From an archaeon GW2011_AR10 (GTDB taxonomy: Archaea > Iainarchaeota > Iainarchaeia > Iainarchaeales > GW2011-AR10): a stretch of DNA of 32,000 nt. Below the pieces are notes generated by a model. It saw nothing but the letters and a program-made list of their open reading frames with translations. It was not told the origin of the DNA and did not search any database. The stretch is taken from NCBI GenBank assembly GCA_000830275.1, contig CP010424.1, positions 480,001-512,000 on the forward strand, read 5' to 3'. Positions 5,341-23,373 of the stretch are shown in pieces (positions within the stretch are counted from its first letter, which is position 1; the number at the start of each line of letters is the position of its first letter). A program made the translations under genes and the position numbers.

Positions 5341-5490
5341 ATGTTCACAAAAACCAAAGCAATTGAAAGGCCTTATTCCGAGGCTGAGCTTAAGGGGCTT
5401 GAAAAGGTTTTTGCAGAACTTAGGAAGGCTGGTCATAGCCCTAGTGTGAAAGCTTACCTTAGAAAGAGGAAAGCAGAATTAAAGGCTTAA
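5341..5490 (+). CDS. Small protein (49 aa), member 1 of a local three-member family
   Basis: Hand-translated: MFTKTKAIERPYSEAELKGLEKVFAELRKAGHSPSVKAYLRKRKAELKA. It shares MFTKT and ERPYS.A.L with the ORFs at 6403 and 6234. Its 3' end overlaps the convergent PIN gene by 12 nt. It is below the ORF-track length cutoff. Confidence 0.45.
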   Translation: MFTKTKAIERPYSEAELKGLEKVFAELRKAGHSPSVKAYLRKRKAELKA

Positions 5491-5964
5491 TTCGTTGAGT
5501 CTAATGAATCTCGGGGTATTCAACCCATTTTTTTCGTTGACCTTGTTGTAGGCCCTTAGACATGGTTTTGATTTCATTGTCCTGTCATCCTCAGAAACAA
5601 TGATATCAAGAGTGTGGATTGTTGCTGTTGCTACAATAAGAAAATCGGGCATAATTTTTCTCTTAGGAACCCCACCTTTATACTCTTTCCAGTATTCCTC
5701 TGCAAGAACATCGACGACCCTTTCAATTGGAAAGGAATGGTCTTTGACCAAACCATCATAAACTTGAAGAAGCAGGTTTCTGAAGCTCTTCCCATCATAT
5801 TTAACGCTTGGAGGAATATCCCTAAATTCATCCCTTATTATTTTACAACCATAAACAACAAGATTGCCCTTCTTGACGAGAGCCTTAACTTTAGAAAAAC
5901 CATTTTTCAAAAGAAACTCATAAGTGTTAGTGTCCAACATTACCCTTAACTGGCCACCCTGCAT
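5479..5964 (-). CDS. PIN-domain protein (VapC-like ribonuclease), paralog 1
   Basis: Acidic PIN tetrad context: MLDTN, IRDEF, DFLIVATA and IVSEDD. I place the start at ATG 5964 (MQGGQLRV...), not at the track start 6003. Confidence 0.8.
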   Translation of the reverse strand: MQGGQLRVMLDTNTYEFLLKNGFSKVKALVKKGNLVVYGCKIIRDEFRDIPPSVKYDGKSFRNLLLQVYDGLVKDHSFPIERVVDVLAEEYWKEYKGGVPKRKIMPDFLIVATATIHTLDIIVSEDDRTMKSKPCLRAYNKVNEKNGLNTPRFIRLNELSL

Positions 5965-5974
5965 GATAATTCTT

Positions 5975-6007
5975 GTGAAAAGAAAAGAATAAAAGACAGG
6001 CATTAAA
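5975..6007 (-). promoter_or_regulatory. Conserved 33-nt element upstream of PIN paralog 1 (minus-strand TTTAATGCCTGTCTTTTATTCTTTTCTTTTCAC)
   Basis: Identical 33-mer at 7058-7090. In both copies it lies exactly 10 nt upstream of the PIN ATG. The TTTAAT box sits about 40 nt upstream of the ATG, consistent with an archaeal TATA promoter and a short leader. Confidence 0.45.
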
Positions 6008-6402: not shown

Positions 6403-6570
6403 ATGTTTACAAAAACAATTGAAAAGCCGAAAAGCCCGGCATCTGCTAAAACTTCAAATAGACACCATTCCAGCAAAGATTTCTGGAATAAAGTCCATAT
6501 GGCAAAAAAAGACCCTAATTTCAGGGCTTTCATTAAGGAATTCGTTGCCTATCATACGGGTTCAAAGTAG
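6403..6570 (+). CDS. Small protein (55 aa), family member 3
   Basis: Internal ATG of track ORF 6304..6570: MFTKTIEKPKSPASAKTSNRHHSSKDFWNKVHMAKKDPNFRAFIKEFVAYHTGSK. It starts 4 nt after the stop of member 2. Its 3' end overlaps the convergent PIN gene by 9 nt. Confidence 0.45.
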   Translation: MFTKTIEKPKSPASAKTSNRHHSSKDFWNKVHMAKKDPNFRAFIKEFVAYHTGSK

Positions 6571-7047
6571 TTTCCAGAATTTTTCAATAGAAAAGAAAGC
6601 GGGCTCCCGCAACTGGTTTCTTGCATTTACAGCAGTATAGGCTTTTACAGCGGGCCTGGAAATCATGGAATCGTTGTCTTCTGAAACAATGATGTCCAAA
6701 TCATGTATGCTAGAACAAGCGACTATAAGAAAGTCATTCCACATTTTCCTTTTTGATATTCCGCCCCCATATTCCCGCCAATACTGCTCTGCAATATTCT
6801 CAATGACCGGACTCAAGTAGTAGTCTTTTTTCACAACCCGGTCATAAGCGCCTAACAGGAGACCCCTGAAGTTCCTATTTCCATACTTCAGCTTTTTCGA
6901 AGTGTCTCTTAGCTCTTTCCTCACTACATCAAAACCATAAATTGTTACTTTGGTTGTTTCTTCGGCCTTCTTCAGGATAGACTCATCTTTTTCAAAGAAG
7001 AGCCCGTAAATGTTTGTGTCTAGGATTATGCGAAATCGCTTTTCCAT
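6562..7047 (-). CDS. PIN-domain protein (VapC-like ribonuclease), paralog 2
   Basis: ILDTN, VRKEL, DFLIVACS and IVSEDN motifs. I place the start at ATG 7047 (MEKRFRIILDTN). Confidence 0.8.
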   Translation of the reverse strand: MEKRFRIILDTNIYGLFFEKDESILKKAEETTKVTIYGFDVVRKELRDTSKKLKYGNRNFRGLLLGAYDRVVKKDYYLSPVIENIAEQYWREYGGGISKRKMWNDFLIVACSSIHDLDIIVSEDNDSMISRPAVKAYTAVNARNQLREPAFFSIEKFWKLL

Positions 7048-7057
7048 GACAAAACTA

Positions 7058-7090
7058 GTGAAAAGAAAAGAATAAAAGACAGGCATTAAA
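7058..7090 (-). promoter_or_regulatory. Conserved 33-nt element upstream of PIN paralog 2
   Basis: Identical to 5975-6007, with the same 10-nt spacing to the ATG. Confidence 0.45.
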
Positions 7091-10518: not shown

Positions 10519-10538
10519 GTAAAAAAAGTGAAATTAAA

Positions 10539-10739
10539 ATGAAACTGAAAAAGAAGCATTGGCTAATCCTTTATTTAGTTTTTGTTGGAATTCCAGCAAT
10601 TGTTTTTAGTGGTTCACTTTACTTTTTTGCTACTAGTGATCCTGAATTAGCAATTACAATTGCTCTTGGAGCAGCAGTTGTACTAGTTTTTTTTGTTTGG
10701 TTATTAAAGAACTTTAGAAGCTTATTAAGGGGTTTTTAG
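10539..10739 (+). CDS. Small membrane protein (66 aa, two predicted TM helices)
   Basis: ORF track. There are two hydrophobic stretches. Its stop TAG (10737-10739) overlaps the GTG start of the next gene. Confidence 0.5.
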   Translation: MKLKKKHWLILYLVFVGIPAIVFSGSLYFFATSDPELAITIALGAAVVLVFFVWLLKNFRSLLRGF

Positions 10740-11344
10740 TGGCAAGGAGAAGAAGTCGTCGAGATGATGAATTAGTAGTAGGATTTCTATTTATTTTATA
10801 TTTAATTATATTAATTCTCGCTTTAATTTACTTGGTAATAACTTCTACTATTGCTTGGATTAGCGAAAACTTGCTTTTGGTAATTCTTATAGGAATTCCA
10901 TTAATGTTGATTGTGGCAATAGTTGTTGGAGTTGGTGGCTACTATTTTTTAAAACGTAGAAATGAACGCTCAGAACAACTTTATTATCAAGTTGTTGATG
11001 CAATAAAAGAATTTAAGCCATCCAAAAAATGGTCGCATGAGGAAGGTTATCATGCAGAACTTCAACGTGAGCTGAAAAATCATTTTAAAAATGCAATGGT
11101 AGAAATTCAAAAGGGTTCTTCAAGACCTGATATTGTAATTGATGATATTGCAATAGAAGTTAAAGGGCCAACTGGAGCAAGTGAATTAGAAACCATCCCA
11201 AACAAAGTTATGCGATATGGCCTGCATTTTAGAAAAGCTTTGATTATTGTTTTGTTTGATCTTCGAGCAAGTGACAGATATTATAAGGAGTGGTTAGAAG
11301 CTTTGAAGCGACAGTTTCCAGAAGTGGAGGTAATAAAAAAGTGA
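10739..11344 (+). CDS. Membrane-anchored PD-(D/E)xK nuclease-fold candidate: two N-terminal TM helices plus a ~120-aa soluble domain
   Basis: The TM segments are at about aa 13-36 and 44-70. The C-terminal domain has HEEGYHAEL (helix with an acidic residue), then SRPDIVIDDIAIEVKG, which fits the PD...ExK pattern (D131, E140, K142). Confidence 0.6.
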   Translation: MARRRSRRDDELVVGFLFILYLIILILALIYLVITSTIAWISENLLLVILIGIPLMLIVAIVVGVGGYYFLKRRNERSEQLYYQVVDAIKEFKPSKKWSHEEGYHAELQRELKNHFKNAMVEIQKGSSRPDIVIDDIAIEVKGPTGASELETIPNKVMRYGLHFRKALIIVLFDLRASDRYYKEWLEALKRQFPEVEVIKK

Positions 11345-11420
11345 GAAGAAATAAAATCCATAAAAAATACTGCTTTAAGTAAACTTCAAAAGAAGCTCAA
11401 GAAAAAGGGAGGTGGATAAA

Positions 11421-11597
11421 ATGTATGATCCATTCGGTACAAGGAAAAAAAGAAAATCCGCTGATAGAAGAGCAGGAACAAGAAATGTGCCCCATGTAGG
11501 AAAAGCACCTAGAGCTCGCACAGCAAAAGGAAGCTGGAGGAAAAAAAGAAAAGATGCTGGCAAAAAAAGACGCAGAAAAAGCATTTGGGGATTTTGA
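11421..11597 (+). CDS. Very basic small protein (58 aa, Arg/Lys-rich)
   Basis: ATG at 11421 is preceded by GGGAGGTGGAT (SD-like) 6-7 nt upstream. Sequence: MYDPFGTRKKRKSADRRAGTRNVPHVGKAPRARTAKGSWRKKRKDAGKKRRRKSIWGF. A competing antisense ORF exists. Confidence 0.35.
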   Translation: MYDPFGTRKKRKSADRRAGTRNVPHVGKAPRARTAKGSWRKKRKDAGKKRRRKSIWGF

Positions 11598-11614
11598 AAT
11601 CTGAATTTGAAATC

Positions 11615-12079
11615 TTACTTTTTATATGAATGGTAACTGAGTAGCCCCCATATAAGCCCTAGAAGAGCAGTAACTATAAAATAAGGAAGGACATTCTGCC
11701 TAGATTCATCCCACTTTTTAAAAGTTTCAATCCTATACTCTAGGTCATCTGTATACTTTTTTTCGAAAAAATTTATCTCCCTGTAATCAGCACGCATAAT
11801 TCGTTGGTTTTCTTCATCTGCCAAATTTATGTTCTTTGTAAAAGCAGGACCAAATAAAGTTTCATCTTTAGTCTTAAGGTAAGCATATGCGCTAATCTCT
11901 TTTTCAAATTGTTCGTGTTTGTCTCCAAGTTCATCAATATAATGAGTCAAATCACAATAATATTGGGTATCTTTTACAAATGCGTCTCCAAGTTTTATGA
12001 TATCTTTTGTGCAATAAAACTCTTTCTGAAATTCCAATTCAGTGTAGTCAGCAAGGATGCTCCAAGTATTTTTTTCCAT
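11615..12079 (-). CDS. Hypothetical protein with a C-terminal TM anchor (154 aa)
   Basis: ORF track, ATG start. The body is acidic and soluble, followed by LPYFIVTALLGLIWGLLSY near the C-terminus. Confidence 0.55.
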   Translation of the reverse strand: MEKNTWSILADYTELEFQKEFYCTKDIIKLGDAFVKDTQYYCDLTHYIDELGDKHEQFEKEISAYAYLKTKDETLFGPAFTKNINLADEENQRIMRADYREINFFEKKYTDDLEYRIETFKKWDESRQNVLPYFIVTALLGLIWGLLSYHSYKK

Positions 12080-12096
12080 TAATTTTTGTATATTAA

Positions 12097-12132
12097 AATG
12101 ACGTCCTCCCCTGCCTAAAGGCAGGGGTATCC
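12097..12132. repeat. Conserved hairpin motif, copy B (aatgaGACGTCc-tCCCCTGCC-taaa-GGCAGGGG-tatcc)
   Basis: 8-bp stem (12108-12115 / 12120-12127) with a 4-nt loop. It is enclosed by a 9-nt inverted repeat, atgacgtcc (12098-12106) / ggacgtcat (12144-12152). Confidence 0.5.
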
Positions 12133-12170
12133 CAACATTTAATGGACGTCATGAACCCGTCAACGGAAAA

Positions 12171-12212
12171 GATACCGAGGCCTACAAACCTCGGCTTAAA
12201 AGCCGAGGTATC
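12171..12212. other. Hairpin with two mutually exclusive pairings; it shares the GGTATC 3' tail with the hairpin motif family
   Basis: CCTCGG (12189-12194) can pair either with CCGAGG (12175-12180) upstream or, as CCTCGGC (12189-12195), with GCCGAGG (12202-12208) downstream. GATAC (12171-12175) is complementary to GTATC (12208-12212). Confidence 0.4.
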
Positions 12213-12315
12213 TTTTGGGTTGAATCAAAAGAGCTCTAGGATTAGCTCAATCAAATCCAGAGCAATTAACTGATAGGGAACTCTGGATTCTGGAAGAGTT
12301 TGGAGGTGATTCTTA

Positions 12316-12468
12316 ATGCGAGCTTTGGTTTTGTTCTTTTTTAGCATTGTCTTTTTCCCCACAATATTTCTTCTTGATGCATTTGGTTTTCAAGAAGAAG
12401 CAATTGAGATTTCAACTCATATTGCAGCATTTTTCTCAGGAATGCTGGTTTGGGAGTTGGTGTTATGA
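12316..12468 (+). CDS. Small hydrophobic protein (50 aa)
   Basis: Hand-translated: MRALVLFFFSIVFFPTIFLLDAFGFQEEAIEISTHIAAFFSGMLVWELVL. A strong SD-like GGAGGTGA lies 7 nt upstream of the ATG. Its stop overlaps the ATG at 12465 (ATGA). Confidence 0.4.
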   Translation: MRALVLFFFSIVFFPTIFLLDAFGFQEEAIEISTHIAAFFSGMLVWELVL

Positions 12469-13382
12469 ATTCCGCACCGGAAATGTGGTGTCTGAAAGCC
12501 CATATAACTGCCTCAAAATTCAATAGTACAATGAATGGAGAAAAATATGAAATCACTAAAGAGTATATTGAGAAAGAATATTTTCAGAATGGGCTATCAC
12601 AATATGAAATAGCCAAAAAGGTTGGTTGTTCGCAGACAATTATAAGTGACAGAATGATAAAATTTGGTCTGAAAACAAAAGAAAAAACATGGAAGTTATG
12701 GAAACATATTTACTCGGTCGACGAAACATATTTTGATGAATTGAATGATGAGAATGCTTGGGTCCTAGGATGGCTGGCTAGCGATGGATATGTGATAATT
12801 AGAAATAATTCCCACCTTTTTGGATTAAAACTAGCAGAAAAAGACAAAGAAATAATTTATAAGATTAAAGACCTCTTAAATTTCAATGGCGTTTTATATA
12901 AAGTAAAACAAAAATTGGAAAAAACAGGCAAAGAATACAATCAAATACAGATAAAAATAACCAGCAAGCAAATTGTTAAAAATCTAGAAAAATACGGTGT
13001 TGTACAGAACAAGTCAAAGATAATAAAATTTCCAAAAATTATTGAGGAATTAAACAATGAGTTAATTACAAAAAATTTTATATTAGGAGTATTTGAAGGA
13101 GATGGAAGTGTTCTTTTTGATGAAAAGTATAGTTCACCATGCTTTCAAATTGTCGGGACAAAAGAATTGCTCACAGGCATACAAAAACAATTAATAAAAT
13201 ATTTGGGTATTAGCAAGACAAAATTAACAAAAAACTCATTATTAGGCAACCATTATATGTTAAGATATAGAGGAAGATTCCAAGCAGTCAGGATATTCGA
13301 TTGGCTTTATTTGAACCAAAAACACTATTTAAAAAGAAAATACAGAAAATACATAGATATCAAAAGGAGATTAAGTCTATGA
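12465..13382 (+). CDS. Free-standing double-motif LAGLIDADG homing endonuclease with an N-terminal HTH
   Basis: Two LAGLIDADG-type motifs (VLGWLASDGYV and ILGVFEGDGSV) about 100 aa apart. The HTH-like segment is LSQYEIAKKVGCSQTIISDRM. The start is uncertain: 12465 is favoured by the ATGA coupling, and 12531 is the alternative. Confidence 0.8.
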   Translation: MNSAPEMWCLKAHITASKFNSTMNGEKYEITKEYIEKEYFQNGLSQYEIAKKVGCSQTIISDRMIKFGLKTKEKTWKLWKHIYSVDETYFDELNDENAWVLGWLASDGYVIIRNNSHLFGLKLAEKDKEIIYKIKDLLNFNGVLYKVKQKLEKTGKEYNQIQIKITSKQIVKNLEKYGVVQNKSKIIKFPKIIEELNNELITKNFILGVFEGDGSVLFDEKYSSPCFQIVGTKELLTGIQKQLIKYLGISKTKLTKNSLLGNHYMLRYRGRFQAVRIFDWLYLNQKHYLKRKYRKYIDIKRRLSL

Positions 13383-14104
13383 AAGGAGTTATACTTGCAG
13401 GAGGCCACGGAACCAGGTTGATGCCCCTAACAAAAACTGTCAATAAGCATTTGCTTCCAGTTTACAACAGGCCGATGATTTACTATCCGATTGAAACTTT
13501 AACAAAAGCCGGTATCAAGGAAATCTTGATTGTTACAGGAAGCGATCATGCAGAAGGATTCTCAAAACAGTTAGGTAATGGGAAAGAATTCGGATGCAAT
13601 TTCACTTATGAACTGCAGGACAGTGCAGCAGGAATTGCCGATGCATTAAGGCTTGCAGAGGATTTTGCCGATGGAGAGAAAATAGTTGTAATTTTAGGAG
13701 ACAATATTTTTGAAGATGATATTTCAAAATACGTGAAGGAATTCGAGAAAGGAAATGATGAGGCTGCCATTTTCCTGAAGGAAGTTCCTGATCCACATAG
13801 GTTTGGAGTGCCTGAGCTACAGGGAGAGAAGGTTTTGGGGATTGAGGAAAAGCCAAAGAAGCCCAAATCAAATTTTGCTATTGTTGGTTTGTATATGTAT
13901 GATGAGAAAGTGTTTGACATTATTAAAAATCTGAAGCCATCTGCACGCGGAGAGTATGAAATAACTGATGTGAACAACGCATACCTGAAAAAAGGCAAGA
14001 TGAAAGCAGTGAGATTGAAGGGATTCTGGACAGATGCAGGAACTTTTGAATCCTTGTACAGGGCAGCACAGCTTGTAAAGGAAAAAGAAGACAAGAAAAG
14101 CTGA
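13379..14104 (+). CDS. rfbA: Glucose-1-phosphate thymidylyltransferase (short form)
   Basis: MKGVILAGGHGTRLMPLTKTVNKHLLPVYNRPMIYYPIETL closely follows the RmlA N-terminal consensus. AAGGAG lies 8 nt upstream. The ATG overlaps the endonuclease stop (ATGA). Confidence 0.85.
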   Translation: MKGVILAGGHGTRLMPLTKTVNKHLLPVYNRPMIYYPIETLTKAGIKEILIVTGSDHAEGFSKQLGNGKEFGCNFTYELQDSAAGIADALRLAEDFADGEKIVVILGDNIFEDDISKYVKEFEKGNDEAAIFLKEVPDPHRFGVPELQGEKVLGIEEKPKKPKSNFAIVGLYMYDEKVFDIIKNLKPSARGEYEITDVNNAYLKKGKMKAVRLKGFWTDAGTFESLYRAAQLVKEKEDKKS

Positions 14105-18340: not shown

Positions 18341-19306
18341 ATGAAGGTCAGCGTAATCATCCCTGCGTTCAATTCTTCTTCAACGATTTCTTCATGCATT
18401 GAATCAGTGCTGAAGCAGGGCTTCAAGGATTTTGAAATCATAGTTGTAAATGACGGCAGCACTGATGAAACAGAAAAAATTGTGAAAAAGTTTTCCGGGG
18501 TTAGGCTTTTATCGCAGGAAAACAGGGGGCCTGCTGCTGCAAGGAACCTTGGAGCAAGCAAGGCAAAAGGAGAAATTGTGGCATTCATTGATGCTGACTG
18601 CATTGCATCAGAAGACTGGCTGGATGAGGTTGTGAAAACGTTTGAGGACAAGGAAGTTGCAGGGGTGCAGGGCTCATACAAGTGCAACCAAAAGGAGCTG
18701 ATTGCAAGGTTTATTCAGGTTGAAATTGAGAACCGCTACAAAAAAATGCTGAAGGCAAGCAAACTTGACTGGATTGGAAGCTATTCGGCTGCTTACAGGA
18801 GGGAAGTCTTTTTAAGAGAGGCAGGCTATGACGAGAAATTCAGGAAGGCATCCGGAGAAGATCCAGAGTTAAGTTTTAAACTTTCAAAGAAAGGATACAA
18901 GCTTGTTTTTAACCAGAAGGCAGTTGTTTACCATTCCCATCCAACGGCGCTGTGGAAATACTTGAAGTCAAAGTTCCAGCACGCTTTCTGGAGAGTAAGG
19001 CTTTACAGCAAGCACCGGGAAAAAATAGTGCAGGATTCTTACACTCCGCAGGTGATAAAACTGCAGATTGCAATGTTTTATGTTTTCAGTGCAAGCATTT
19101 TGGGCTTGGCCTTTAGCTCCTTCTTTGTGTGGCCTCTTGCAGTTTCACTTGCCTTGATGTTTTTGAGCTCTCTCCCTTTCTCTTTTGAGGCATTAAGAAA
19201 AGATTTTAGCTTGGGAATTGTTGCTCCGGCAATAGTTTTCCTGCGCTCTGCTGCATTCGGTTTTGGGCTGATTGCAGGAATACTTAATGGAGTTGCGTTA
19301 AAATGA
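18341..19306 (+). CDS. Glycosyltransferase, GT2 family, with C-terminal TM segments
   Basis: VSVIIPAFN...IIVVNDGSTDET and FIDADC, with a hydrophobic C-terminal ~90 aa. Confidence 0.85.
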   Translation: MKVSVIIPAFNSSSTISSCIESVLKQGFKDFEIIVVNDGSTDETEKIVKKFSGVRLLSQENRGPAAARNLGASKAKGEIVAFIDADCIASEDWLDEVVKTFEDKEVAGVQGSYKCNQKELIARFIQVEIENRYKKMLKASKLDWIGSYSAAYRREVFLREAGYDEKFRKASGEDPELSFKLSKKGYKLVFNQKAVVYHSHPTALWKYLKSKFQHAFWRVRLYSKHREKIVQDSYTPQVIKLQIAMFYVFSASILGLAFSSFFVWPLAVSLALMFLSSLPFSFEALRKDFSLGIVAPAIVFLRSAAFGFGLIAGILNGVALK

Positions 19307-20409
19307 GGGTAGTACAAGTAACACACCATTTCTTGCCGTGCATTGGCGGAGTTGAAAGGGTAGTGCTTTATACTGCACAGAAATTGGTTAAGGAAGGCCA
19401 CAAGTGCAGGGTGGTTTGCCTTGACAGGTGCCATAACAGCGAAAAGCTGCTGCCTTCAAGCGAGAAATTTAAGGGCATTGAAATTAAGAGGATTCCGTTC
19501 AGTGACCTGAAATACTATAAGGTAGCGCCGCGTGTTCTGGATTTCATAAAAGATGCTGACCTAGTGCACGTTCACGGCATCGGATTTTTCTCAGATTACC
19601 TGCTTTTGACAAAGCATTTTCACAGGAAGCCGATTGTTGTTTCAACCCATGGGGGAGTATTCCATACAAAAAAGCTTCTTCCCATAAAATGGCTTTACTT
19701 TAACCTGTGGAACAGGGTTTTGCTTCGCAGAGCTGACAGGGTTGTTGCGGTAAGCAAAAACGATTTCAGGATATTTTCCAAGCTGACAAAAAAAATTTCG
19801 CTGGTGGAAAACGGGGTTGACGTTGAAAGGCTGCTGAAACTGAAGCGGGCAGCAGAGAAAGGGCTTTTTGTTTTCATTGGAAGAATCACTTCAAGCAAAA
19901 GGATTGACTTGCTGCTGAAGGCTTTTGCAGTAGTAAAGGAAGAGCAGCCTTTTGTGAGGCTTGCAATTGTCGGGGAAGACTTTGATGGAACAAAGAAAAA
20001 ACTTCTCGGGCTCGTGAAAAAGCTTGGGTTAGAGAATTGCGTTGAGTTTGCCGGCAACCTCACAGGAAAAGAGCTTGATGCGCTGATGTCAAGAGCCGAG
20101 TTCTTTGCGTCTGCCTCTGAGTATGAGGGGTTCGGCATTTCAGCCATTGAAGCAATGGCTGCAGGTGAAATAGTGTTCTTGAACAACATTGACTCTTTCA
20201 GGAATTTTGTGAAACACAAAGAAAACGGTTTTTTGGTTGATTTCTCTGACCCTGAAACAGCCGGCTTGAAAATCTCTGAGGCGCTTGATTCAGGCAGGGA
20301 GGAACTTGAAAAAATCCGCAAAAACGCAGTTGTCTCAGTGCAAAAATACTCTTTAAACAATTCTTTTAACAGCCTAATGGAAGTTTACAATTCGGTGGCA
20401 GAGAAATGA
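19303..20409 (+). CDS. Glycosyltransferase, GT4 family
   Basis: EYEGFGISAIEAMAAGE (EX7E). The start overlaps the upstream stop (ATGA). Confidence 0.85.
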   Translation: MRVVQVTHHFLPCIGGVERVVLYTAQKLVKEGHKCRVVCLDRCHNSEKLLPSSEKFKGIEIKRIPFSDLKYYKVAPRVLDFIKDADLVHVHGIGFFSDYLLLTKHFHRKPIVVSTHGGVFHTKKLLPIKWLYFNLWNRVLLRRADRVVAVSKNDFRIFSKLTKKISLVENGVDVERLLKLKRAAEKGLFVFIGRITSSKRIDLLLKAFAVVKEEQPFVRLAIVGEDFDGTKKKLLGLVKKLGLENCVEFAGNLTGKELDALMSRAEFFASASEYEGFGISAIEAMAAGEIVFLNNIDSFRNFVKHKENGFLVDFSDPETAGLKISEALDSGREELEKIRKNAVVSVQKYSLNNSFNSLMEVYNSVAEK

Positions 20410-21585: not shown

Positions 21586-23373
21586 ATGTGCGGCATATGC
21601 GGCTTTGCTGGCTTCGCTGATTCAAAGCTTTTGAAGGAAATGACTGACGCGCTCGAGCACCGCGGCCCGGATGATTCAGGAAAATTTGAGGATGCTGGAA
21701 TTTCTCTTGGCCACCGAAGACTCAGCATAATTGACTTAAGCAAGAAAGGCAGGCAGCCGATGCACAACGAGGATGAAAGCATCTGGGTTTCGTTCAATGG
21801 AGAAATATACAACTTCAGGAAACTGAGAGAAGAGCTGGAGCAGAAAGGCCACAGATTTTATTCAGACACTGATACAGAGGCGATAGTGCACGCTTTTGAG
21901 GAATTTGGGTCAACATTTGTTGAGCACTTAGACGGAATGTTTGCTTTTGCGCTGTGGGACTCTAAGAACAGGAAGCTTTACTTGGTTAGGGACAGGCTCG
22001 GGAAAAAACCACTGTACTATGCTTTTGTAGACAATGGAATTGTGTTCGCTTCAGAAATAAAGGCCCTGCTTAAGCACAAAGAAATCAAAGCAGAAATTAA
22101 TCTGAAAGCAGTTGACTTGTTTCTTTCAATGCGCGTTGTGCCTGGAAAAGAAACCTTGTTTGATGGGGTATTCAAGCTTTTGCCCGGAGAAATGATTTTA
22201 TTCAGTGAGGGGAAAACTGAAAACAGTTTTTACTGGGAGCCAAATGAAAATATCAGGGAAAGAAATGAGGGCGCTGCTGCAAAAGAGTTCTTGGGGTTGT
22301 TTGAGAAAGCAGTTGAAAAAAGGCTTGTGAGCGATGTTCCAATCGGGGCTTTTCTCAGCGGCGGGCTTGATTCAAGCTCGATTGTAGCAGTAATGTCAAG
22401 GTTCAATGTGAAACCGCTTAAGACTTTCACTGTTGGCTTTGGCGAAGAAATGGATGAATTCCCGTTCGCTGGAAGGATTGCTGAAAGATTTTCAACCGAG
22501 CACTACAAGTTGATTGTCAGCTTAAAGCAGATGACGAAAGAGCTTCCAAGGATTATCTGGCACTTGGATGAGCCAATTTCTGACCCTGCAATAATGCCAA
22601 GCTACTTTGTAACAAAGCTTGCAAGAAAGCATGTAACGGTTGCATTGCTGGGGGAGGGCAGTGACGAGCTTTTTGCAGGATACTCTAGGTATCAACAGAT
22701 GAACTGGCCTTACACTGTTCTGCCTAAAAGGGTGATGGAGAAAAGGTACTTTGAAAGCGATGTTGCATTCAATTCAAGCGAGAAAAAGGAATTGATGAGC
22801 CCTGAACTGAAGGAGAAAACCAATTCAGGTTACCTTCCTTTTGCAAAGCAGTACATTAATTCCCTGCCGGCAAAGGAAACACTCAACAAGGCGCTTTTGT
22901 TTGACTTAAGGCAGCTTTTGCCAAATTACCAGCTGATGAGGGTTGACAAGCTCTCAATGGCTTTTGGCTTGGAAGCAAGGGTTCCTTTCCTTGACCACCG
23001 GATTGCTGAATTCGCTTTTTCATTGCACCCTGCATTGAAGCTGCGCGGTTCCAACGGAAAGTTTGTGATAAAAAAAGCAGTGCACGAAATCCTTCCAAAA
23101 AACGTGACAGCAGAGAAGAAAAGGATTTTTGCAATTCCAATGAAAAAATGGTTTGACGTGGAGCTTAAGAGCATTGCACAGCAGCAGTTAGAGGAAGCCG
23201 TGATTGATAGGAGAAAACTGTTCAAACGGGAAGCTGTCAGCAGGCTCTTCCACAAGCAGGTTTTTGGCCTGAGGAAAGGCCGCTACTCCAATCAGCTCTG
23301 GATGCTTTTAATGCTGGAACTATGGCAGAAAATCTTTGTTGACGAAACCCCGTTTGAAAAAATTTCGCTTTAA
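21586..23373 (+). CDS. asnB: Asparagine synthase (glutamine-hydrolysing) family amidotransferase
   Basis: N-terminal MCGICGF (Cys2 nucleophile) and the SGGLDSS PP-loop. 595 aa. Confidence 0.9.
   Translation: MCGICGFAGFADSKLLKEMTDALEHRGPDDSGKFEDAGISLGHRRLSIIDLSKKGRQPMHNEDESIWVSFNGEIYNFRKLREELEQKGHRFYSDTDTEAIVHAFEEFGSTFVEHLDGMFAFALWDSKNRKLYLVRDRLGKKPLYYAFVDNGIVFASEIKALLKHKEIKAEINLKAVDLFLSMRVVPGKETLFDGVFKLLPGEMILFSEGKTENSFYWEPNENIRERNEGAAAKEFLGLFEKAVEKRLVSDVPIGAFLSGGLDSSSIVAVMSRFNVKPLKTFTVGFGEEMDEFPFAGRIAERFSTEHYKLIVSLKQMTKELPRIIWHLDEPISDPAIMPSYFVTKLARKHVTVALLGEGSDELFAGYSRYQQMNWPYTVLPKRVMEKRYFESDVAFNSSEKKELMSPELKEKTNSGYLPFAKQYINSLPAKETLNKALLFDLRQLLPNYQLMRVDKLSMAFGLEARVPFLDHRIAEFAFSLHPALKLRGSNGKFVIKKAVHEILPKNVTAEKKRIFAIPMKKWFDVELKSIAQQQLEEAVIDRRKLFKREAVSRLFHKQVFGLRKGRYSNQLWMLLMLELWQKIFVDETPFEKISL

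Follow-up and report, generated by a model that had tools for sequence, protein, structure and literature searches.

A predicted membrane-anchored PD-(D/E)xK nuclease-like protein in archaeon GW2011_AR10 and its mainly archaeal family

The stretch of DNA analyzed here, referred to as the window, covers 32,000 nucleotides of the genome of archaeon GW2011_AR10 (Iainarchaeota; contig CP010424.1, positions 480,001 to 512,000), and it carries two short open reading frames (ORFs) on the forward strand which overlap by one nucleotide. The second of these encodes a protein of 201 residues with an arginine-rich N-terminus, two transmembrane (TM) helices and a C-terminal domain of PD-(D/E)xK nuclease-like character; this protein and the family to which it belongs are the subject of the present work. 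An earlier note had interpreted the two ORFs as a translationally coupled pair, and the coordinates, overlap, arginine-rich N-terminus and two TM helices that it described are all borne out by the sequence. The features of the locus are as follows, in coordinates of the window.

Two overlapping reading frames at the locus

10539-10739, + strand: small membrane protein of 66 residues with two TM helices (ORF list), predicted to form a hairpin with both ends inside (N-in/C-in) and lineage-specific
10737-10741, + strand: stop/start overlap TAGTG, read directly from the sequence
10739-11344, + strand: membrane-anchored PD-(D/E)xK nuclease-like protein of 201 residues, with 80 homologues and a full-length AlphaFold2 model with a predicted local distance difference test score (pLDDT) of 92.7
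10739-10771, + strand: arginine-rich, predicted cytoplasmic N-terminus, residues 1-11 (MARRRSRRDDE in the ORF translation), which fits the positive-inside rule; basic N-termini also occur in relatives
10772-10951, + strand: TM hairpin with TM1 at about L12-I34, an uncharged outer loop at T35-N44 and TM2 at about L45-L71, from a hydropathy scan and the AlphaFold2 helices 6-43 and 45-91
10988-11341, + strand: conserved C-terminal domain, residues 84-201, with a predicted minimal PD-(D/E)xK fold, from the domain model, fold matches and sub-threshold Pfam matches
11039-11041, + strand: E101, the acidic residue opening helix alpha-1, kept in 90% or more of the 81 aligned sequences
11129-11164, + strand: putative catalytic motif running from D131, which follows P130 and opens beta-2, to E140-V-K142 on beta-3, with D131, A138, E140 and K142 invariant in 81 sequences

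The 201-residue ORF is, on the evidence of sequence comparison, a real gene, because a search of 5.8 billion proteins retrieved 80 homologues with E-values from 2e-37 to 1.5e-12. The GTG at 10739 is the earliest start codon available to it, and this start is supported by the layout that relatives share, as they open with a comparable basic stretch followed by a TM segment (MAKRKRRRES, MGKRRKRKDP and VPRRRKDEID). The TAG of the 66-residue ORF (10737-10739) and this GTG (10739-10741) have one G in common, an arrangement which suggests translational coupling, and the small ORF is probably co-translated with the nuclease gene. Overlaps of start and stop codons are frequent across the window, as at 1145-1148, 19303-19306, 20406-20409 and 23370-23373, so that the TAGTG overlap is a sign of an operon, yet nothing unusual.

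The 66-residue ORF is itself probably a genuine gene, as judged from its length, its position and the charges of its product. An open frame of 66 codons in DNA of about 31% GC has, by our own estimate, a chance of about 0.5% per frame; it fits exactly between the upstream stop (10518) and 10739, starting 20 nucleotides past the stop of an RmlB-like gene, and its product has positive-inside flanks. No homologue of the product was found outside its own cluster among the 5.8 billion proteins, and none of the family libraries matched it, so that conservation is unable to confirm the ORF. Both ORFs are identical across the four public contigs which contain them, and population variation is thus useless as a coding test for the smaller one. 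A single comparison of the small protein with the TM hairpin of the nuclease-like protein gave no real similarity (E 0.03).

The C-terminal domain and the regions in front of it

The alignable part of the 80 homologues is confined to the last 118 residues or so, with identities of 34-59% over this C-terminal domain and 29-53% over the full length, and the regions preceding the domain in these proteins are unrelated and comprise 0-229 residues. In the alignment of 81 sequences, L108, D131, A138, E140, K142, G143, P144, T145 and F173 are invariant, and the positions conserved in at least 90% include P94, E101, Y104, E122, G126, S128, R129, P130, K156 and Y160. The signature of the family takes the form G-S-S-R-P-D ... 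A-I-E-V-K-G-P-T, together with the pair K156/Y160 on helix alpha-2. The motif peptide, SRPDIVIDDIAIEVKG, had been assigned in its entirety to nucleotides 11129-11164; D131 to K142 do lie there, while the quoted peptide from S128 to G143 occupies 11120-11167. Of the two adjacent glutamates which had been proposed as the helix residues of the active site, E101 is among the conserved positions, unlike E102, which is not conserved.

The structure predicted by AlphaFold2 from the family alignment reaches the same high pLDDT (92.7) given above for the full protein, with the long helices 6-43 and 45-91 leading into the domain, and the domain alone (118 residues) was modelled with a pLDDT of 96.9 and a predicted template modelling score (pTM) of 0.89. 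In domain numbering, its elements are helix 18-32, strands 36-38, 49-51 and 54-59, helix 64-80, strand 84-89, helix 96-109 and strand 113-117, giving the order alpha-beta-beta-beta-alpha-beta-alpha-beta, with which the full-length model agrees. The putative active-site residues were placed by their secondary-structure position in the model, not by three-dimensional geometry: E101 opens alpha-1, D131 stands before or at the start of beta-2, and E140-V-K142 lies on beta-3, which is the PD-(D/E)xK layout.

Scores in the fold search with the full-length model were lowered by the long TM helices, and the search was therefore repeated with the domain alone. In the Foldseek comparison with the PDB, the restriction enzyme OkrAI (3odh) came first (probability 0.99, TM-score, a template modelling score, of 0.62), followed closely by CdiA-CT (4g6v), FANCM, XPF, NucS and AF1548 (1y88), and lower down by FokI, EndoMS and PaqCI, with no E-value better than 8.9e-3. 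Among predicted viral structures, the best matches included endonuclease-like proteins, endonuclease I and restriction enzymes, with E-values down to 1.4e-4. Searching the PDB by sequence, whether with this protein alone or with a profile of the family, yielded nothing meaningful, and neither of the two proteins nor the isolated domain was matched at threshold by any model of Pfam, NCBIfam or PADLOC. When 47 family members were scanned singly against Pfam, sub-threshold matches recurred to DpnII-MboI (PF18742; 17 of 47), SfsA (PF03749; 15 of 47) and CdiA_C (PF18451; 14 of 47), with single matches to CoiA_nuc and VRR_NUC. The best E-value over the 47 was 6e-4 (DpnII-MboI). In ten members inspected individually, the Pfam scores were 11.7-17 bits against cut-offs of 22.8-27, and the matches spanned the catalytic core.

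Placement of the C-terminal domain in the PD-(D/E)xK superfamily is well supported by the predicted structure. The restriction-endonuclease fold read from the motif order in the earlier note is thus upheld by the AlphaFold2 topology, by the conservation of D131, E140, K142 and E101 and by the best Foldseek matches, which in the PDB are weak and mostly members of this fold. With known nucleases of this fold, namely OkrAI/BamHI, CdiA-CT, DpnII/MboI, SfsA, NucS/EndoMS (2vld, 5gke), the ERCC4 domains of XPF, Mus81 and FANCM, and AF1548, the domain has in common the alpha-beta-beta-beta-alpha-beta core, the acidic residue of alpha-1, the aspartate at the start of beta-2 and the E-x-K on beta-3. It differs from them in its own signature and K156/Y160 pair, which fall below the cut-off of every library model, and in its additional membrane anchor. 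Membership in any one of the described restriction-fold families is unsupported, none of their library models being reached at cut-off. An Hjc-like resolvase, suggested by the motif layout, was considered and set aside, as Hjc lay outside both the top 50 fold matches and the profile hits.

The regions in front of the domain are highly variable. Across the family, the N-terminal extensions range from 0 to 596 residues and are unrelated in sequence. A hydropathy scan of the 225 members with at least 25 residues ahead of the domain predicted no TM segment in 100, one in 35, two in 80 and three or more in 10, so that 125 of the 225 (56%) have at least one. Membrane tethering, which had been regarded as unusual for a nuclease of this fold, is therefore common within the family, and it has a precedent in the bacterial defence protein SNIPE (PMC13190303). 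In the 80 members with two TM segments, lysine and arginine residues number on average 2.1 ahead of TM1, 1.3 between the two helices and 4.0 beyond TM2, which places the domain in the cytoplasm. The nuclease-like domain is thus predicted to be cytoplasmic and anchored by an N-in/C-in TM hairpin, in agreement with the tether proposed previously, and in the AlphaFold2 model about 20 helical residues stand between TM2 and the domain.

Other members are built differently. In long relatives, a signal peptide leads into an extensive outer region, which is followed by a single TM segment, a Lys/Glu-rich coil and the domain; their fusion partners include a PEGA domain in one case and otherwise weak hits. 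Single relatives carry a hairpin matching 8xMP, a hairpin labelled DUF378, or a J domain, and in the literature on 8xMP nothing relevant was found. Many of the members with no TM segment start with a strongly amphipathic helix (MGLFDK...), for example MGLFDKVGDAIKKAG, which we take to resemble the membrane-binding N-terminal helix of PspA/Vipp1. A hydrophobic moment of at least 0.5 was found in 32% of the TM-less members vs 6% of control neighbour proteins (Mann-Whitney p 2e-7, a value inflated by the relatedness of the sequences). It seems that the presence of an anchor, and not its sequence, is what matters.

Two further sequence elements were observed in these regions. TM-less relatives such as P0024, P0042, P0045, P0058 and P0162 begin with an amphipathic helix like MGLFDKVGDAIKKAG, and behind it they contain short motifs (LKKLCxxxG and FAKRNxIxIRDI) with a resemblance, in appearance only, to helix-extension-helix DNA-binding elements. 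In addition, many relatives (P0004, P0013, P0018, P0037, P0088, P0136 and the gene at L033:4389-5360) contain, behind the TM region and ahead of the nuclease domain, one to three copies of a motif of about 25 residues, approximately KGLVKFVDRFGxEKWGTPEEVEKW; it is missing from the window protein and could not be assigned to a known domain.

Distribution of the family and surroundings of the gene

When 1.84 billion representative proteins were searched with the family profile, 720 came in at E<1e-3, a number which falls to 343 at E<1e-10 and to 226 clusters at E<1e-30; the conserved domain lies nearly always at the C-terminus. The named homologues, from sources which include Methanoregula, Bathyarchaeota, Geoglobus acetivorans and Methanoculleus marisnigri (Memar_2016), are nearly all annotated as "hypothetical"; two carry pipeline labels, which fit their N-terminal parts. 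A scan of 185,579 species genomes for the invariant motif yielded 75 loci, with identities of 40-58% across hosts. The hosts are mostly archaeal, from at least ten phyla, together with a few bacterial metagenome-assembled genomes (MAGs). The archaeal hosts comprise Iainarchaeota, Woesearchaeota, Aenigmatarchaeota, Micrarchaeota, Altiarchaeota, Nanoarchaeota, Methanomicrobia, Methanosarcinales, Thermoplasmatota, Halobacteria, Nitrososphaerota, Methanomethylicota and Asgard groups. Two MAGs contain two copies each (loci L014 and L062, and loci L072 and L079). The identity of 40-58% in distant hosts, the rarity and the patchiness point to an accessory gene which moves horizontally; it also stands alone, with no conserved partner.

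Among the 2.9 million contigs of IMG/VR, one carries a member of the family, and no match was found in phage and plasmid records, both of which are mostly bacterial collections; on these counts, a mainly virus-borne family was rejected. In the sole copy from the viral collection (L085:5038-6372), the nuclease domain is preceded by a J-domain-like N-terminus with several TM segments after it, and genes for a Z1/ResIII helicase and a tyrosine integrase are found nearby. In the literature on Memar_2016, in reviews of archaeal dark matter and in work on membrane-bound archaeal nucleases, no description of the family was found. The family is thus an undescribed, mainly archaeal one, while the fold itself and membrane-bound nucleases as such were already known.

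The genes next to family members are varied. The 150 neighbours within two genes include three CARF proteins, two Schlafen-type helicases, two ResIII proteins, two integrases, two transposases and one EVE protein, these being raw counts with no background rate; many of the others are housekeeping genes. One close relative is found among orphan ORFs between a transposase gene and a Cdc6 gene, and another lies near an integrase gene. In the window, the pair of ORFs belongs to a block of distinct composition, with these features:

10520-13380, no strand: low-GC block of 2.9 kb which carries the pair, 31-34% GC vs 42-44% in the flanks (composition)
11412-11597, + strand: small, extremely Lys/Arg-rich ORF of 58-61 residues, just downstream of the nuclease gene, with no family match
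11615-12079, - strand: ORF of 154 residues with a hydrophobic C-terminal segment, with no match in Pfam, NCBIfam or PADLOC
12450-13382, + strand: free-standing ORF with a LAGLIDADG_3 match (Pfam, E 6.7e-9) and a weak N-terminal helix-turn-helix

The block sits between the RmlB-like gene and a nucleoside triphosphate (NTP)-transferase gene, inside a large glycan-synthesis cluster. Besides the pair, it contains the basic small ORF, the orphan 154-residue gene, the LAGLIDADG/helix-turn-helix ORF and a strongly folded intergenic stretch. Its composition is consistent with acquired DNA, and no convincing flanking repeats were found around it. The LAGLIDADG ORF, the end of which overlaps the longest ORF holding the NTP-transferase gene (13301-14104), may be a mobile gene of the homing-endonuclease type.

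The folded stretch (12085-12320) lies between the 154-residue gene on the reverse strand and the LAGLIDADG ORF, and its nested stem-loops are rich in GC although the DNA around them is AT-rich. It folds with an energy of -83.8 kcal/mol vs -57.4 +/- 4.3 for shuffled sequence (z = -6.2), and it may represent a structured non-coding RNA; the Rfam model of HgcC RNA matches at 12088-12210 on the reverse strand below threshold (23.3 bits vs a cut-off of 50, E 0.01). Elsewhere in the window, two paralogous genes of 174 residues on the reverse strand (5479-6003 and 6562-7086) have 44% identity (E 2e-52). One of them has a weak PIN-domain match below cut-off (E 7e-4), and gene callers put small ORFs adjacent to these genes, which may form modules of the toxin-antitoxin type.

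Proposed action at the membrane, alternatives and known systems

We propose, with moderate confidence, that the product of the 201-residue gene is a membrane-anchored nuclease of this undescribed, mainly archaeal family, which acts as a single protein on the cytoplasmic side of the membrane. The arginine-rich N-terminus and the TM hairpin would hold the protein in the membrane, with both ends inside, and TM2 would extend into the cytoplasm by a helical stalk of about 20 residues bearing the 118-residue domain with E101, D131 and E140-x-K142. With stalk and domain held at the membrane in this manner, phosphodiester cleavage would be confined to its inner face, and the placement would keep the nuclease off the chromosome. 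The target would be DNA on its way into the cell or located at the membrane, for instance that of a virus in the course of entry, and the variable N-terminal part would serve as an anchor or adapter. Such a logic would be that of bacterial SNIPE, carried out with a different nuclease fold. An active, metal-dependent nuclease, DNA as its substrate and a role in defence are inferred.

In SNIPE, a TM anchor is followed by a DUF4041 domain and, at the C-terminus, by a GIY-YIG nuclease; the protein cleaves the DNA of phages while it is being injected, and it becomes toxic when the TM segment is removed (PMC13190303). Its homologues have a conserved nuclease and a highly variable N-terminus, with one TM segment in 59% and two in 7%, and those with none have other membrane-targeting features (PMC13190303). 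The archaeal family resembles it in several respects: in each case one protein combines a membrane anchor at its N-terminus with a nuclease, here a predicted one, on the cytoplasmic side at its C-terminus, the nuclease is the most conserved part, the N-terminus varies in sequence and length, and TM segments occur in most homologues (59% plus 7% in SNIPE; at least one in 56% here). TM-less homologues with other potentially membrane-binding features are found on both sides, as is the proposed logic whereby confinement to the membrane spares the chromosome. There are differences as well. SNIPE has the GIY-YIG fold, whereas the present domain is of the PD-(D/E)xK type and has no Pfam GIY-YIG match; SNIPE is single-pass with its N-terminus outside, whereas the archaeal protein is predicted to form a hairpin with both ends inside; and SNIPE is a bacterial system with its function established by experiment, whereas the family is mostly archaeal, with a function suggested by comparison. 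The two are analogues, not homologues. A tentative extension of the proposal, which we regard as having some plausibility and as less probable than the proposal itself, is that the family is the archaeal counterpart of SNIPE, a PD-(D/E)xK nuclease cutting foreign DNA as it crosses the membrane, with N-terminal anchors, outer domains or amphipathic helices steering it to entry sites.

Several observations weigh against the proposed membrane nuclease. The fold matches in the PDB are all weak, with none at or below an E-value of 1e-3 and the best at 8.9e-3, and none of the curated family models is reached at cut-off by the 201-residue protein or its relatives. SNIPE needs its DUF4041 domain, which binds DNA and the tape-measure protein, and here there is neither a DUF4041 match nor a separate DNA-binding domain. 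A predicted TM segment is lacking in 44% of the members, and the topology was derived from hydropathy and the counting of charged residues in place of a dedicated predictor. Finally, the neighbours within two genes also include NrdD, RuBisCO, isocitrate dehydrogenase and FtsZ, and these surroundings are not clear defence islands. On the other hand, at the three points where the earlier note had expected its interpretation to be vulnerable, the nuclease core is present in the predicted structure, the D, E and K residues are conserved among homologues, and no housekeeping operon recurs around the gene.

An alternative is an effector of abortive infection or a toxin, in which the nuclease would be held at the membrane until the variable N-terminus, sensing stress or a signal, brings about its release or activation and the degradation of the cell's own DNA or RNA. 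The N-termini are indeed variable, and the receptor-like relatives with large outer domains, one TM segment and the nuclease would suit this role, as would the resemblance to the CdiA-CT toxin nuclease in structure and, weakly, in sequence and the accessory, patchy nature of the gene. We nevertheless consider it unlikely: no immunity or antitoxin gene is conserved next to the gene in 67 loci, PADLOC gave no match, and the outer loop of the window protein, at about 10 residues, leaves scant room for a sensor.

The module of two genes, in which the 66-residue protein would act as a sensor, inhibitor or antitoxin in complex with the nuclease, is quite unlikely. The stop/start overlap and shared strand suggest co-expression, and both products are predicted N-in/C-in TM hairpins. 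An overlapping upstream ORF was found in 9 of 121 loci from genomes and metagenomes, and six of the nine encode TM proteins, including that of locus L006, the closest genome relative. However, the other 112 loci have no overlapping upstream ORF, TM segments are predicted in only 4 of the 29 upstream ORFs which a gap of 0-40 nucleotides separates from the gene, the upstream membrane proteins elsewhere are related neither to the 66-residue protein, itself devoid of any homologue, nor to each other, overlapping genes are routine in this genome, and the enrichment of six in nine is post hoc and based on small numbers. An all-against-all BLAST comparison of four genes per side in the 67 loci revealed no recurrent partner; the largest cluster of neighbours is represented in 5 of 67 loci, at scattered positions and none of them fixed. 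A coupled upstream membrane protein is therefore an occasional feature, noticed after the fact, and not a conserved system, and the 66-residue product is a lineage-specific small membrane protein outside any such system. The pair of the earlier note is thereby unsupported as a conserved module, as is the effector/sensor module which the note drew from it; an effector/sensor reading would rest on the single protein.

A housekeeping function in DNA processing at the membrane, such as the clearing of DNA from the division site, the salvage of imported DNA, repair or resolution, appears improbable to us. The strong conservation of the domain across phyla (40-58% identity), the occurrence of the family in small DPANN genomes and the presence of NucS and XPF among the fold matches would be compatible with it, as would the motifs in some TM-less relatives which resemble, in appearance only, helix-extension-helix elements. 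Yet the gene was detected by the invariant-motif scan at no more than about 75 loci in 185,579 species genomes, in two copies in some of them; moreover, it has no conserved genomic context, the window copy is of atypical GC content, and mobile-element genes lie near several copies. The least probable alternative, for which we see very little room, is a restriction-fold domain that is inactive on nucleic acid and serves in binding or as a scaffold, or has some other substrate, since despite the inactive members of the fold, FAAP24 and ERCC1 being among the matches, D131, E140 and K142 are kept throughout the 81 sequences and E101 in nearly all of them, and inactive members typically lack the full catalytic set.

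Two further known systems invite comparison with the proposed membrane nuclease. Shedu (SduA) is likewise encoded by a single gene, with a C-terminal PD-(D/E)xK nuclease behind N-terminal domains. The N-terminal sensor domains of Shedu proteins are diverse. A passage of PMC13434031 summarizes the domain organization of EcSduA. The present family differs from Shedu in that it has no PADLOC match and no match to Pfam DUF4263 (the PADLOC noise being Cas12f at 0.0084 and DpdJ at 0.025), and its domain is much smaller (118 residues) and has no DNA-end clamp domain. The nucleases EndA and NucA face outwards and have a different fold, whereas the archaeal domain is predicted to face the cytoplasm. 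They are membrane-attached nucleases of competent bacteria that act on DNA at the cell boundary (PMC3025545), and in this respect they resemble the proposed archaeal nuclease.

Antiviral defence in archaea is far less charted than in bacteria, in which a single-gene, membrane-bound nuclease that stops phage DNA at entry was first described in 2026 (PMC13190303). The family surveyed here is compact (about 200 residues), well conserved and recognizable by its signature motif, and it is a candidate for defence at the site of entry in many archaeal phyla, including DPANN and methanogens, with cultured members in Methanoculleus marisnigri JR1 (Memar_2016) and Geoglobus acetivorans. As it is absent from Pfam, NCBIfam and PADLOC, a model of the family would annotate several hundred "hypothetical" proteins, whether or not they have a role in defence. 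If the family does prove to be the counterpart of SNIPE, nucleases guarding entry at the membrane would represent a convergent strategy, adopted in two domains of life with two unrelated nuclease folds.

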